DNA of 64,000 nucleotides from Escherichia coli (GTDB taxonomy: Bacteria; Pseudomonadota; Gammaproteobacteria; Enterobacterales; Enterobacteriaceae), in the NCBI RefSeq assembly GCF_011045215.1, contig NZ_CP049201.1, one strand, 5' to 3'. Below are positions 36,804-39,808 of the stretch, piece by piece. Within the stretch, counting starts at the first letter, position 1; the number at the start of each line of letters is the position of its first letter. The position numbers and the translations under genes were made by a program. The notes under the pieces are model-generated. The model was given only the letters and a program-made list of their open reading frames with translations, was not told the origin of the DNA and ran no database searches.

Positions 36804-36837
36804 GACGGCCTCTGCGGAGGCCGTCACTCTTTATTGA
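36804..36837. terminator. Bidirectional intrinsic terminator between convergent pntB and tqsA
   Basis: Perfect 9-bp stem gacggcctc-tgcg-gaggccgtc followed by a T-rich run; the tqsA stop codon lies within the stem. Confidence 0.6.
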
Positions 36838-37858
36838 GATCGCTTAACAGAACGGCGATGCTTTGACCTCCCGCTGTTTGTTCAAGCGCAATTTTGACAA
36901 TAATTGTCAACGGCACGGAAAGCAGCATACCCACCGGTCCTAACAACCATCCCCAAAAAATCAACGACAAAAATACCACCAATGTCGAAAGCCCCAGCCC
37001 ACGTCCCATGATGCGCGGCTCCAGAATATTGCCGAAGACCAGATTAATCAGCAGATATCCCGCCAGCACCAGCAACGCTTCGTAGAAGCCATTAAACACC
37101 AGTACCTGAGCGATAGGGGGGATTGCCGCGAGAACTGAACCAATATTAGGGATGTAATTAAGCGCAAAGGCCAGCAATCCCCAGACAAAAGCGAAGCGAA
37201 CATCGAGTGCGGCGAGCATCGCCCAGGCGACCAGGCCGGTGATGATGCTGATGGCTGTTTTCAGCACCAGATAATGAGACACACTGTCAATCGCGCGTTG
37301 AATCGCCGCCATCCCTTCAACCGGACGCGCCATCATTTGCTGAAATTTTCCGGGCAATTGTGGCACTTCGAGCAGCATAAACAGCACCGTCAGCAGCAAT
37401 AAAAATATTGATGACATGGCATTAGATAACTGCGTCAATAAGTTGGTGAGCAACGTCATCGCCGCGTTCGGATCAATGTAATGCGCCAGTTGGTCAACTG
37501 AGACGTCAATCCCTACGCGTTGCAACAACGGCTCAAGAGCTTGCAGCGGCGTCATAATAGAGTTGCGATATTGTGGTAACGTCCGCGTCAACTCGTTGAG
37601 CGCGGAACCCAGATAAGCTAACAGCAACACCATAGCCATCACGATGATGGTCATCAAAATCGACACCGCCAGTACACGCGGCACTCGCCAGCGGACCATG
37701 TGTTGCACCAGCGGGTTAAGAATAACAGCAATAAATAATGCGAGAATAAACGGCACGATGATCTCGGCGGCAAAACGGATACCGCAGAGAATAATGACCA
37801 GCATTCCCAACATAATGACGATTTTTAGGCCATTGAGCGTGATGATCGGCTTTGCCAT
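36824..37858 (-). CDS. tqsA: TqsA (YdgG), AI-2 exporter family membrane protein
   Basis: 344-aa polytopic [45 protein letters not shown]... Confidence 0.9.
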
Positions 37859-38058
37859 GCTTGTCCCCGTTTTTTCTTCCTTTGCTAATAATGTCTTTTT
37901 CGCTCCGTCATCATAACGAAAATCAAACCGCTCAGGTAAAGAAGTGAAAATATTTTGAGTTAATTCTTAAGCTATGATACAAATCAGGCGTGTTCAACTA
38001 CCGAGGACAATTATCATCCGCGATGACGAGAAGCAACACTGCGGATAATTGTAATATT

Positions 38059-38160
38059 ATGGACAATTTGTTCAGGACGTTATTTTCTACATTTACCCAT
38101 CTTCGTACCTCATCCACTATCTTGCTCGTAGGTGAGCAGCACTGGCGCAACGCGCTTTAG
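38059..38160 (+). CDS. Candidate 33-aa upstream ORF in the long mdtJI leader (possibly the uORF I recall being named mdtU)
   Basis: Hand-translated ORF MDNLFRTLFSTFTHLRTSSTILLVGEQHWRNAL in the 408-bp tqsA-mdtJ intergenic region, on the mdtJ strand; no obvious Shine-Dalgarno. Confidence 0.3.
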   Translation: MDNLFRTLFSTFTHLRTSSTILLVGEQHWRNAL

Positions 38161-38266
38161 TCCTTTCTTCTGCCAAAGCTTGCCCTATACGCGGGGCTTG
38201 ACCACTTTACTTTGGTTTCGCTGAATTAAGCGAAAATTAGAATAATTCTCTTGCAGGAGAAGGACA

Positions 38267-38632
38267 ATGTATATTTATTGGGTTTTATTAGGTCTGGCTA
38301 TTGCTACAGAAATTACCGGTACGCTGTCCATGAAATGGGCGAGCGTCAGTGAGGGAAATGGCGGCTTTATTTTAATGCTGGTGATGATTTCTCTGTCGTA
38401 TATATTTCTCTCTTTCGCCGTTAAAAAAATCGCCTTAGGCGTGGCTTATGCACTGTGGGAAGGTATCGGTATTTTATTTATTACCTTGTTTAGCGTTTTG
38501 TTATTCGACGAAAGTTTATCGCTGATGAAAATTGCCGGGTTAACCACCCTGGTCGCCGGGATAGTGTTGATCAAATCAGGTACCCGTAAAGCGCGTAAAC
38601 CTGAACTGGAGGTGAACCATGGCGCAGTTTGA
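38267..38632 (+). CDS. mdtJ: MdtJ, SMR-family spermidine exporter subunit
   Basis: 121-aa [57 protein letters not shown]... Confidence 0.9.
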
Positions 38633-38948
38633 ATGGGTTCACGCCGCCTGGCTGGCATTGGCAATCGTGCTGGAAATCGTTGCTAACGTCTTTTTGAAAT
38701 TTTCTGACGGCTTTCGTCGCAAAATATTTGGCTTGCTCTCCCTGGCGGCGGTGCTGGCTGCCTTTAGTGCGCTTTCTCAGGCCGTTAAAGGGATCGACTT
38801 GTCTGTCGCTTATGCATTGTGGGGCGGGTTTGGTATTGCCGCCACGTTAGCCGCAGGTTGGATCTTGTTTGGTCAACGGTTAAATCGTAAAGGCTGGATT
38901 GGCCTGGTCTTGCTGTTGGCTGGAATGATCATGGTGAAACTTGCCTGA
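38619..38948 (+). CDS. mdtI: MdtI, SMR-family spermidine exporter subunit
   Basis: 109-aa [38 protein letters not shown]...; 14-nt overlap with mdtJ. Confidence 0.9.
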
Positions 38949-38953
38949 TGAAG

Positions 38954-38982
38954 ACGCTGCCCGCGCTGTCGGGCAGCGTTTG
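38954..38982. terminator. Bidirectional intrinsic terminator between convergent mdtI and ydgD
   Basis: Perfect 10-bp stem acgctgcccg-cgctgt-cgggcagcgt followed by ttgaacattattttt. Confidence 0.6.
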
Positions 38983-38986
38983 AACA

Positions 38987-39808
38987 TTATTTTTGCGACA
39001 GTTGATCCAGCTTGTCGCGAAAACCGGTAACAGAAATGGCCCGGTTATCGGCGCGCCAGCGATCTTTCGCGGCAGGAGCCGAACTTTGCACCCCAATTAA
39101 TTGCCAGCCGTCATCGGTATGCAACATCAGAGGCGAACCGCTGTCACCCGGCAAGGTATCGCACTGATGTGACATCACCGACGTTTGCGCCCAGCCAGTC
39201 ACTTCACAGTTTTGATGACTGTACAACGTATCGAGATGATCTTCAGGGTATCCTGCCTGAGTCACTTTACGACCTGCCGCTTTTAATGCGGCGGTAAGCG
39301 CGGCTTTATCTCCCTCAAATAACGGCAACGGCGTAATGCCAGAAGGGGGATTACGTAGCACAATCAATCCGAAGTCCCACGGCGCGGCTGCGGGAGGTAC
39401 AATCCAACCATCCCCATCTGCTTTTAACCGCTTTCCCAGTGTCGGATCAACGCGGCCTTCTATGTCGTGGATGTCATAGCGCCAAAGACCTTTATTTGAC
39501 ACAAAACGCAGCGCCACTGCTTTATCGGCTTTACCCTTTGGAGGTGTCAATAAACAGTGTCCTGCCGTTAATGCCAGATTGGGTGCAATCAGCGTCGCCG
39601 TACATAAATTGCCGCTGGCCGTTTCCAGTTGCCCAACCGCATCCCACGGTGATTGGGTCGTGTCATTCACTGGCACACGATCATCATGACCAAAAAACAG
39701 GGTGCTGACCTCATCGTTTGCCGATTTGGCAATGTCTGGTTTATCTGCAAACACAAAAGCAGACGTCAAACTAATTGCACCCAACACTACAGCAATGGTT
39801 GTACGCAT
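38987..39808 (-). CDS. ydgD: YdgD, secreted trypsin-like (S1 family) serine peptidase
   Basis: 273-aa ORF with signal peptide; TAGHC histidine motif and GDSGSP serine motif. Confidence 0.85.

Follow-up and report, generated by a model that had tools for sequence, protein, structure and literature searches.

How is spermidine sensed at the operon that encodes its own exporter, and what part does the small open reading frame (ORF) upstream of mdtJI play? The window, by which we mean the whole 64,000-nucleotide stretch of Escherichia coli contig NZ_CP049201.1 that was analysed, contains the following genes around this site.

36824-37858, - strand: tqsA (AI-2 exporter), the divergent neighbour, whose start codon bounds the spacer (ORF list; RefSeq annotation of near-identical E. 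coli records).
37859-38266, unstranded: tqsA-mdtJ intergenic spacer of 408 bp, common to mdtJ and the divergent tqsA (tqsA end at 37858, mdtJ start at 38267).
38059-38160, + strand: mdtU (ydgV, b4777) (MG1655 identity; Pfam PF23502; Adams et al. 2021, PMC7815308).
38267-38632, + strand: mdtJ (ORF list; RefSeq annotation; Adams et al. 2021, PMC7815308).
38619-38948, + strand: mdtI, second subunit of the spermidine exporter (ORF list; annotation).

The sequence-only reading had pointed to a small ORF upstream of mdtJI and in the same orientation. It is indeed present on the + strand, running from the ATG at 38059 to the TAG at 38158-38160 (33 codons plus the stop), with the translation MDNLFRTLFSTFTHLRTSSTILLVGEQHWRNAL. 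It had further been suggested that this might be the published polyamine-responsive mdtU, and the proposed comparison with the published gene bears this out. The DNA at 38059-38160 has 100% nucleotide identity to mdtU of E. coli MG1655 (b4777, formerly ydgV), the peptide is that of YP_010051187.1, and the MG1655 annotation places mdtU at the corresponding site, with the same 106 nt (38161-38266) between its stop and the mdtJ AUG as in K-12. A Pfam scan of MdtU at E<=1 gave PF23502 'YdgV' as the sole match (93.5 bits against a cutoff of 27, residues 1-33 of 33); an NCBIfam search with MdtU gave zero matches. Relative to MG1655 the window carries SNPs at 38184 and 38189 (in hairpin P-a, see below) and at 38240, and a 3-bp indel near tqsA; the ORF itself is unchanged. 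The mdtU region was found in 5422 of 5426 complete E. coli genomes. On this sequence identity we regard it as virtually certain that the ORF at 38059-38160 is mdtU, the upstream ORF (uORF) of the mdtUJI operon encoding the MdtJI spermidine exporter. The identification is correct and not new: mdtU is already published and annotated in K-12, with a Pfam family of its own and a characterisation dating from 2021.

Size alone says little, as an ORF as long as mdtU is no more than chance expectation. Of 5000 shuffled versions of the 408 bp, 2242 contained an ATG ORF of at least 33 aa on the + strand, and the spacer itself has several further ORFs of at least 20 aa, on both strands. The commonness of such sizes in shuffled sequence is what speaks for a chance ORF without function, an idea to which we give practically no credence: the published lacZ fusion and start-codon mutant (PMC7815308) refute it, and the ORF is conserved in 79 of 80 loci with a coding-type pattern of substitution. 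What shows the ORF to be genuine is its identity to an experimentally validated gene, together with its conservation in orthologous loci. These loci, from about 17 genera, carry an intact uORF of 31-37 aa upstream of mdtJ, the single exception being interrupted by a contig end.

Two in-frame starts lie further upstream. The RefSeq/PGAP gene model is a 56-aa 'YdgV' beginning at GTG 37990, a codon located at the transcription start; the added stretch shows no coding conservation. ATG 38023 (45 aa) becomes AAG or CTG in Enterobacter and others. Both were rejected as the conserved mdtU start. The region of these two codons carries 1-2-nt indels between genera, and the PF23502 model spans only the last 33 residues of longer mdtU forms. 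A profile search with the 56-aa form returned 27 clusters only, every one of them Enterobacteriaceae. To judge from the alignments, the RefSeq/PGAP N-terminus is probably over-extended.

Much of the function is established. Adams et al. (2021, eLife, PMC7815308) found that mdtU is translated (lacZ fusion), that the mdtJI leader undergoes Rho-dependent premature termination near the mdtJ start (rhoR66S mutant), that spermidine at high pH gives read-through into mdtJI and that mutation of the mdtU ATG abolishes spermidine induction of mdtJI; a ribosome stall at mdtU was suggested. The Rho inhibitor Rof is published to raise mdtJI mRNA, and published ribosome profiling has mdtU and mdtJI co-induced at pH 5.8. 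According to a 2025 review the exact mechanism of the mdtU spermidine response is not yet settled, and our literature search found no mechanistic study of mdtU later than Adams et al. 2021. The value of the present analysis is limited to the manner of spermidine sensing at mdtU, which comparative features make directly addressable. To the published picture these add an invariant UAG, selection on nine residues of the peptide, an anti-Shine-Dalgarno (anti-SD) tract at the stop, a rut-like ORF interior and a possible hairpin-bridged Shine-Dalgarno (SD) sequence.

Adams et al. (2021, eLife, PMC7815308) mapped the mdtJI transcription start to 278 nt before the mdtJ AUG, a site that we place at ~37989 in the window, ~6-7 nt downstream of a -10 element. 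The 408 bp had been described as the mdtJI leader; the length is right, but it is that of the whole tqsA-mdtJ spacer, the mapped 5′ UTR being 278 nt.

37975-37983, + strand: probable extended -10 promoter element, TG at 37975-76 and TACAAA at 37978-83 (position relative to the published start; conservation).

T37975, G37976, A37979, A37981 and A37982 are invariant across 27 genera/species, and from its sequence this element is probably the extended -10 promoter of mdtUJI. A consensus scan of 37700-39100 for sigma-70 promoters and intrinsic terminators gave no -35/-10 pair and no terminator. Uninformative by itself, this result agrees with an extended -10 promoter and with termination by Rho.

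Conservation within MdtU is confined to the two ends of the peptide; the interior is free to vary, yet keeps its nucleotide bias.

38131-38160, + strand: codons 25-33 (GEQHWRNAL) and TAG, the conserved C-terminal block (alignment).

In the orthologues (79 of 80 loci) the C-terminus reads (G/C/A)(E/D)QHWRxAL and is followed by the stop, with W, R and L invariant. Mean column identity is 0.89 for the C-terminal codons versus 0.59 for the ORF interior. Third positions in the block vary synonymously (Leu CTT/CTG/CTA/CTC, Gly GGT/GGC, Glu GAG/GAA, Gln CAG/CAA, Arg CGC/CGT, Ala GCG/GCA). Since the amino acids are kept while the third positions change, selection appears to act on the peptide and not on the RNA; the last nine residues of MdtU are, by this pattern, selected at the level of the peptide. 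TAG closes the ORF in all 74 unique sequences and in 3 further species (other genera or lineages), and the four-fold Leu site adjoining it uses all four bases.

In another reading MdtU is a small protein with a function in trans, perhaps as partner to MdtJI or as its regulator, and the ATG mutant loses induction for want of that protein. The ORF always accompanies mdtJI, even where the neighbour is other than tqsA, and a western blot has revealed tagged YdgV (Weaver et al. 2019, cited in PMC7815308). We consider this quite improbable, as conservation of the peptide ends only, with a free interior of biased composition, is typical of leader peptides, and the ATG mutation exerts its effect on the mRNA, with Rho involved (PMC7815308).

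Between the mdtU stop and mdtJ, folding and alignment point to the following RNA elements.

38160-38173, + strand: anti-SD tract GUCCUUUCUUCUGC (MFE fold; 66 representatives).
38176-38199, + strand: predicted hairpin P-a (in most genera; deleted in the Kluyvera group).
38216-38235, + strand: predicted hairpin P-b (UUUCGCU/AGCGAAA), with a U-rich run before it (RNAalifold consensus).
38246-38261, + strand: weak local hairpin UUCUC/GAGAA, which also covers the mdtJ SD (RNAalifold consensus, -4.8 kcal/mol).
38253-38265, + strand: mdtJ SD block GCAGGAGAAGGAC, 3′ strand of the predicted long-range helix (MFE fold; duplex tests).

The anti-SD tract begins at the last base of the mdtU stop codon, and in the predicted MFE fold it forms a 13-bp helix with 38253-38265. 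RNAalifold, applied to the stop-to-mdtJ alignment, did not return this helix and chose the weak local hairpin instead. The helix was therefore tested alignment-free, by best window and by cognate and non-cognate duplexes. The leader's best SD-complementary window starts -5 to +4 nt from the uORF stop in 50 of 66 representatives, and cognate tract/SD duplexes are more stable than non-cognate ones (-17.2 versus -15.65 kcal/mol, permutation p<1/5000), against -9.2 kcal/mol for composition-shuffled tracts. In a fixed alignment, shifts of register from genus to genus leave the 5′ half of the helix only 54.8% paired. Opening the mdtJ ribosome-binding site is predicted to take 12.9 kcal/mol when the leader is free, falling to 10.6 if a ribosome occupies the uORF stop and to 8.9 if ribosomes cover the entire uORF (control blocks 12.5 and 11.9); a ribosome at the stop saves over 2 kcal/mol in 16 of 33 species. 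Accessibility of the mdtJ SD with a ribosome at the stop goes from 0.14 to 0.23 only, and other pyrimidine tracts (mid-uORF, local UUCUC) are able to substitute for the distal tract. The modelled thermodynamic effect of a stop-bound ribosome on the mdtJ SD is modest. Hairpin P-b is 87.6% paired, with both-side changes at 5 of 7 pairs. P-a is weakened in this window by 38184 G>C and 38189 G>A relative to MG1655 (-8.7 versus -11.6 kcal/mol).

The nucleotide bias of the ORF interior bears on Rho.

38064-38123, + strand: C-rich, G-poor tract in mdtU, candidate rut (composition scan; 28% C, 8% G).

In 66 of 66 representatives the bias of the variable uORF interior (on average 31.7% C, 12.2% G and 70% pyrimidine) is maintained despite amino-acid variation, and by its composition this interior is a candidate Rho loading (rut) site. 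The premature 3′ end reported by Adams et al. (2021, PMC7815308), 6 nt inside the mdtJ ORF, falls at ~38272, 7 nt past the 3′ end of the final base pair of the long-range helix. We infer that this end may be linked to the foot of the predicted helix.

Taking the evidence as a whole, the explanation that we favour, and hold to be reasonably probable, is that mdtU is the leader ORF of mdtUJI and that spermidine is sensed at its termination. In the presence of spermidine, the ribosome that has made GEQHWRNAL would linger on the invariant UAG, at the RF1-dependent termination step. Bound there, it would cover approximately the first 10 nt of the 13-nt pyrimidine tract otherwise paired with the mdtJ SD, and ribosomes queued behind it would cover the C-rich, G-poor interior of mdtU, the candidate Rho loading site. 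Translation of mdtJ would follow and Rho termination would be prevented. Without spermidine, release would be fast and the long-range helix would close the mdtJ ribosome-binding site; Rho would load and terminate early in mdtJ, and trimming of the RNA would stop at the helix foot, 6 nt inside mdtJ. The unvarying TAG and the selection on the C-terminal residues lend indirect support to a stall of this kind. Weighing against the scheme are the modest modelled effect of a stop-bound ribosome and the failure of RNAalifold to select the long-range helix. For this particular sequence of steps (stall on UAG, opening of the anti-SD helix, masking of the rut) we see the chances as evenly balanced.

An invariable UAG would also suit spermidine-stimulated read-through of the mdtU stop, by which ribosomes would cross the anti-SD tract and so free the ribosome-binding site of mdtJ. 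A documented precedent is rpoS, where polyamines stimulate read-through of a UAG, a case that requires the supE suppressor tRNA (PMC4405209). A frame shared by mdtU and mdtJ, with the TAG as sole barrier, occurs in Kluyvera, Pluralibacter and some other genera, but the downstream frame is not conserved: beyond the TAG the extensions measure 4-158 codons and favour no frame (spacer lengths modulo 3 split 33/25/21), and a conserved read-through ORF was rejected on these grounds. Read-through also gives no reason for conservation of the C-terminal peptide, and we judge it highly improbable.

Stalling at termination leaves one feature without an account, the 5′ leader. From the transcription start to the mdtU AUG its mean column identity is 0.91, which makes it the most conserved part of the leader, above the ORF interior.

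38003-38006, + strand: GAGG, the sole good SD-like element upstream of mdtU, at the 5′ foot of P1 (anti-SD scan).
38007-38052, + strand: predicted hairpin P1 (predicted folds, -13 kcal/mol; covariation).

There is no SD at normal distance from mdtU, a property shared with those polyamine-modulon mRNAs whose SD is obscure or distant. GAGG lies 53-56 nt from the AUG in linear distance, and this GAGG/GGAG element, 52-56 nt away, outscores every other anti-SD match within 75 nt upstream of mdtU in 63 of 66 representatives (-5.9 kcal/mol versus -3.0 kcal/mol at the canonical position). P1 has a lower stem ACAAUU/AAUUGU, an upper stem AUCCGC/GCGGAU and the conserved loop GAUGACGAGAAGCAACAC, and 6 nt separate its 3′ foot from the AUG. 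The upper stem is 99.3% paired, with compensatory changes at two pairs. In the folded model P1 may bridge the distant SD to the mdtU AUG. Two other pairings were considered and rejected. A switch between AAUUGU (38047-52) and ACAAUU of mdtU codons 2-3 leaves ~3 pairs in several genera, as codon 3 varies (AAU, AUU, AUG, AAA); pairing of the SD-like P1 loop (GAGAAG) with pyrimidine tracts gives 5-6 pairs at most and no covariation.

These features raise the possibility that spermidine is sensed at mdtU initiation and not at termination. P1 would bring GAGG to ~6 nt from the AUG, and spermidine, by stabilising the helix, would raise initiation; the heavier ribosome traffic would then mask the rut-like tract and disrupt the anti-SD helix. 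Such a mechanism could act together with stalling at termination. In its favour are the position of the best SD-like 9-mer at the 5′ foot of P1, the compensatory changes in the hairpin, the strong conservation of this part of the leader and the fact that GAGG, where altered, becomes GGAG. Polyamine stimulation of initiation is documented as the class 1 mechanism of the polyamine modulon, whose mRNAs (oppA, fecI, rpoN and others) have an obscure or distant SD, as mdtU does (PMC4405209). For the modulon mRNAs the stimulation is known, whereas in mdtU the SD is ~53 nt away and hairpin bridging would be needed, and SDs bridged by hairpins are rare. Sensing at initiation leaves the C-terminal peptide conservation and the invariant TAG unexplained, and we found no published measurement of mdtU translation with versus without spermidine. 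We give this explanation a minor, though appreciable, share of the probability.

The same conserved leader nucleotides, with the covarying hairpins P1 and P-b, might alternatively mean that the leader RNA itself senses spermidine in the manner of a riboswitch, mdtU translation serving only to bar Rho or unfold the RNA and the peptide sequence being irrelevant. Polyamines do bind RNA and alter its structure, a background raised in Adams et al. 2021 (PMC7815308). Synonymous variation and amino-acid conservation in the last nine codons point to the peptide and not the RNA. The whole-leader fold is not unusually stable (z = -1.26), and an Rfam 15 covariance-model search of 37000-39500, both strands, gave no match at E<=1. 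An RNA sensor of this kind appears to us unlikely.

Returning to sensing at termination, we note that it can be combined with the 5′ leader in a two-point spermidine sensor, a tentative reading which we think somewhat doubtful. Initiation at mdtU would be polyamine-dependent through GAGG (38003-06) bridged by P1 (38007-52). GEQHWRNAL would then block release at UAG by RF1, so that the ribosome would be parked on the anti-SD tract and the queue behind it would hide the rut. If true, MdtU would be the first arrest peptide in bacteria with demonstrated sensing of spermidine, and one specific for a single release factor.

The closest known likeness is speFL (orf34), the leader of speF-potE, which is also of ~34 codons and also belongs to polyamine metabolism. 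In both, leader translation together with the ligand prevents Rho-dependent premature termination, the ligand being ornithine for speFL and spermidine for mdtU. In E. coli SpeFL the ribosome stalls with UAG in the A site and RF1 blocked, and the rut overlaps the uORF and is masked by queued ribosomes; for MdtU the stall is only proposed and the rut is a candidate by composition. All three stop codons occur in speFL across species, whereas mdtU has TAG in every sequence examined. An additional feature of mdtU is the anti-SD tract abutting its stop codon. In tnaC, the leader of the tryptophanase operon, a ligand-dependent block of release at the leader stop masks an adjacent Rho site, the ligand being tryptophan and the stop a UGA read by RF2; for MdtU, with spermidine and UAG, such a stall is again a proposal. 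The literature read on tnaC describes no SD-sequestering helix, of which mdtU has a predicted one. The Pfam scan (E<=1) gave no sequence kinship of MdtU to SpeFL or TnaC, and kinship is not required for membership of a mechanistic class. A eukaryotic parallel is the MAGDIS uORF of mammalian AMD1 (S-adenosylmethionine decarboxylase), where ribosome pausing at the uORF termination codon is polyamine-dependent; the sequences are unrelated, and the MAGDIS uORF works by a scanning mechanism and represses the downstream ORF, whereas mdtU activates.

The 33-codon ORF upstream of mdtJI runs from ATG at 38059 to TAG at 38158-38160 on the mdtJ strand and encodes the peptide MDNLFRTLFSTFTHLRTSSTILLVGEQHWRNAL, exactly the translation that the sequence-only reading had given for 38059-38160. 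That reading had tentatively suggested that the ORF may be mdtU. It shares its peptide with mdtU of MG1655 (b4777, YP_010051187.1, 102 nt, between mdtJ and tqsA), the DNA being identical over the entire ORF. The 106 nt between its stop and mdtJ (38161-38266) agree with the position reported by Adams et al. (PMC7815308), and the Pfam family PF23502 'YdgV' (33 positions) matches it end to end, scoring 93.5 bits (cutoff 27). The identification as mdtU is therefore correct. The surrounding genes are arranged as follows.

Gene arrangement around the mdtJI leader
pntB: neighbour in the E. coli-type gene order of the window, before tqsA
36824-37858, minus strand: tqsA
37859-38266: tqsA-mdtJ spacer, 408 bp
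38267-38632, plus strand: mdtJ
38619-38948, plus strand: mdtI
minus strand: ydgD, last gene of the arrangement

The sequence and 33-aa uORF of the proposed 408-bp mdtJI leader are as described; the 408 bp themselves are the intergenic spacer, which is common to divergent tqsA. The 701 bases round the spacer are present at ≥95% identity in 5422 of 5426 complete E. coli genomes. At ~37886, in the tqsA-proximal part, a TAATAATAA run is 3 bp shorter than in MG1655 and E. coli GPT24-02. Codon 6 of mdtJ (38282-38284, plus strand) is GTT (Val) in the window and ATT (Ile) in MG1655.

The ORF by itself is not above chance: when the 408 bp were shuffled 5000 times, 2242 of the shuffles had an ATG ORF of 33 aa or more on the mdtJ strand, and several other ORFs of 20-56 aa lie in the spacer on both strands. 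Its support comes from identity to a validated gene and from conservation, and the reading as a chance ORF is refuted. mdtU is no new element: it has been annotated and characterised by experiment. Weaver et al. 2019 (cited in PMC7815308) detected the small protein YdgV in ribosome profiling and on a western blot. Adams et al. report that an mdtU-lacZ fusion is active and is killed by ATG to ACG, that a ~280-nt transcript ends 6 nt inside mdtJ, that leader termination is Rho-dependent (by rhoR66S) with read-through in 10 mM spermidine at pH 9, and that spermidine no longer induces mdtJ mRNA and protein once the chromosomal mdtU start codon is mutated (PMC7815308). By analogy with speFL, the ornithine-sensing leader ORF of speF-potE, they proposed polyamine-dependent ribosome stalling on mdtU (PMC7815308). 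Later papers describe AcrR binding to the mdtUJI promoter, an increase in mdtJI mRNA by the Rho inhibitor Rof, and joint induction of mdtU and mdtJI at pH 5.8 in ribosome profiling. Literature searches found no mechanistic study after Adams et al., and a 2025 Rho review still gives the mdtU mechanism as undetermined. The comparative features described below supply specific tests of the molecular mechanism.

Conservation of the reading frame across relatives, a check that the sequence-only reading had proposed, was examined in 80 mdtJ loci from species-representative genomes. In 79 of them mdtJ is preceded by an intact uORF, 31-37 aa long; a contig end cuts the other. Every uORF opens with MD and closes with (G/C/A)(E/D)QHWRxAL, and M1, D2, W29, R30 and L33 are invariant. 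Among the 74 unique sequences, third positions vary synonymously in the conserved codons (Leu33 CTT/CTG/CTA/CTC; Gly GGT/GGC; Glu GAG/GAA; Gln CAG/CAA; Arg CGC/CGT; Ala GCG/GCA), which indicates selection on the MdtU peptide. Mean column identity is 0.91 from the transcription start to the AUG, 0.90 over codons 1-5, 0.59 over codons 6-24, 0.89 over codons 25-33 and the stop, 0.70 in the tract after the stop, 0.61 in the spacer and 0.84 in the mdtJ Shine-Dalgarno (SD) block. Direct sensing of spermidine by the RNA is disfavoured by this codon-level pattern of substitution, as well as by the lack of an Rfam match. A trans-acting role for MdtU as a small protein is likewise disfavoured, since the peptide interior varies freely.

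Trabulsiella, Intestinirhabdus and Salmonella bongori loci share these features. In the Trabulsiella locus (L083) a BOF-domain gene and in the Intestinirhabdus locus (L084) pntB stands upstream in place of tqsA, with uORF-mdtJ-mdtI and the 5′ element intact; the uORF and leader therefore belong to mdtJI. We note that three loci carry labels at odds with their leaders: 'Chryseobacterium sp. 18061' (L057, a Pluralibacter/Citrobacter-like mdtUJI leader), an 'uncultured Raoultella' MAG (L033, Citrobacter-type) and a 'Proteobacteria bacterium' MAG (L070, Kosakonia-type). These look like wrong organism labels or contaminated assemblies.

The 33-aa MdtU is the MG1655 annotation, whereas the 'protein YdgV' of RefSeq/PGAP has 56 aa, starting at GTG 37990, one base past the published transcription start, and running through 38160 (plus strand). 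As a conserved gene, the 56-aa extension is ruled out by 1-2-nt indels between genera 5′ of ATG 38059, by loss of the in-frame ATG 38023, which is AAG or CTG in Enterobacter and others and is not conserved outside Escherichia, Citrobacter and Salmonella, and by the Pfam model, which covers residues 24-56 alone (the last 33). A database search with the 56-aa form gave 27 clusters alone, every one Enterobacteriaceae and PF23502. The comparison thus indicates that the conserved gene is the 33-codon version. ATG 38023 (plus strand) would yield a 45-aa MdtU, and a 24-aa ATG ORF (37974-38048, plus strand) has a start that precedes the mapped transcription start. A transposon-reporter screen found the mdtU frame translated, also 5′ of the annotated start; ATG 38023 may be the source. 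The 24-aa ORF and ATG 38023 may be the 'CDS61' and 'earlier start' of the PIRT-seq study (PMC12350097).

All 74 unique sequences, and 3 additional species, have TAG as the mdtU stop (38158-38160, plus strand). The adjacent four-fold site has changed to saturation, and one transition would suffice to turn TAG into TAA, so selection evidently acts on the identity of the stop. In contrast, the authors of the speFL work found all three stop codons across species and considered release-factor identity unimportant; the available text of Adams et al. makes no mention of this difference (PMC7815308). Polyamine-stimulated read-through of the UAG might be considered. In eight loci of Kluyvera, Pluralibacter, Leclercia and Phytobacter (L035, L040, L044, L051, L055, L057, L062, L071) the uORF is in the mdtJ frame with TAG as the sole barrier, and read-through there would give an MdtU-MdtJ fusion. 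Against this, the known case needed a suppressor tRNA (PMC4405209) and the frame after the stop is not conserved. Taken over all loci, the length of the uORF-mdtJ spacer favours no residue modulo 3 (33/25/21).

Immediately at the stop begins a pyrimidine tract that may sequester the mdtJ SD. In the minimum-energy fold of the leader, GUCCUUUCUUCUGC (38160-38173) and GCAGGAGAAGGAC (38253-38265) form a 13-bp helix; the tract opens with the final G of the mdtU stop, and the mdtJ SD block supplies the partner strand. In an alignment-free search, the best 16-nt complement of the mdtJ SD region starts -5 to +4 nt from the uORF stop in 50 of 66 leaders. Cognate tract-SD duplexes have -17.2 kcal/mol against -15.65 for the less stable non-cognate ones, with 0 of 5000 permutations as good; composition-shuffled tracts reach -9.2 kcal/mol with the SD. 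Clear double changes are seen, for instance in Erwinia and Pantoea (CUCUCCUUA with UAAGGAGAG) relative to E. coli (CUUCUGC with GCAGGAG). With a fixed alignment, pairing reaches 82.5% in the 3′ half of the helix and only 54.8% in the 5′ half, the lower value being due to shifts in register. RNAalifold favours a weak local UUCUC/GAGAA hairpin (-4.8 kcal/mol) over the same mdtJ SD.

Going by the general size of ribosome footprints, a ribosome with UAG in its A site would be expected to cover about 10 nt at the start of the tract. When the stop-codon footprint was blocked, modelled mdtJ SD accessibility rose from 0.14 to 0.23. In the free leader, opening the mdtJ ribosome-binding site was modelled to cost 12.9 kcal/mol; a ribosome at the stop lowered this to 10.6, and full occupancy of the uORF to 8.9 (two control blocks: 12.5 and 11.9). 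In these models the effect of the ribosome is in the right direction, modest and species-variable. The published premature 3′ end (+6 of mdtJ, ~38272; PMC7815308) lies 7 nt past the last helix pair (38265), and exonuclease trimming back to the stable long-range helix would leave that end. A second pyrimidine tract lies mid-mdtU (38113-38127, plus strand), ~46 nt 5′ of the stop; in several Citrobacter and other species it pairs with the mdtJ SD as well as or better than the post-stop tract. It could be a back-up sequestering strand once the distal tract is covered.

The mdtU interior is variable in amino acids, chiefly Ser, Leu, Thr and Phe, and uniform in composition, with means of 31.7% C and 12.2% G and 61-78% pyrimidine in 66 of 66 representative leaders (window 38064-38123: 28% C, 8% G). 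This is the composition expected for a Rho loading site, making the interior a candidate rut. In speFL the rut also overlaps the ORF, and masking by queued ribosomes has been proposed.

The 70 nt between transcription start and mdtU AUG (37990-38058, plus strand) are the most conserved part of the leader, from Escherichia to Erwinia/Pantoea. They hold hairpin P1 (38007-38052), with an upper stem 99.3% paired, compensatory changes (CG to UA, GC to AU) and a near-invariant loop GACGAGAAGCAAC. P1 is absent from Rfam and is not discussed in the available text of Adams et al. (PMC7815308). At the usual distance from the mdtU AUG (38053-38061 region) there is no SD (-3.0 kcal/mol). The best SD-like element (GAGG 38003-38006; GGAG in some genera; -5.9 kcal/mol) sits directly 5′ of P1 in 63 of 66 leaders, and 6 nt separate the 3′ foot of P1 from the AUG. 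It is possible that P1 bridges the two, bringing GAGG to ~6 nt from the AUG. Polyamines stimulate initiation on mRNAs with an obscure or distant SD (PMC4405209). With this precedent and the possible bridged SD, sensing of spermidine at mdtU initiation via P1 is a plausible rival or addition to stalling, with which it could co-exist. Further upstream, TG at 37975-76 and TACAAA at 37978-83 form an extended -10 arrangement whose key bases do not vary across the 27 species aligned. We infer a promoter element here, which fits the published transcription start; a plain consensus scan found no -35/-10 pair.

Two further hairpins lie between mdtU and mdtJ. P-b (38216-38235, plus strand) is 87.6% paired, with 5 of 7 pairs changed on both sides and a U-rich run before it. 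P-a (38176-38199) is found in most genera and is deleted in the Kluyvera group. In the window P-a has -8.7 kcal/mol, against -11.6 in MG1655. Relative to MG1655, the window carries the SNPs 38184 G>C and 38189 G>A, which are non-compensatory and lie in the upper stem of P-a; pairing shifts register there, at a cost of ~3 kcal/mol. E. coli GPT24-02 has this variant too.
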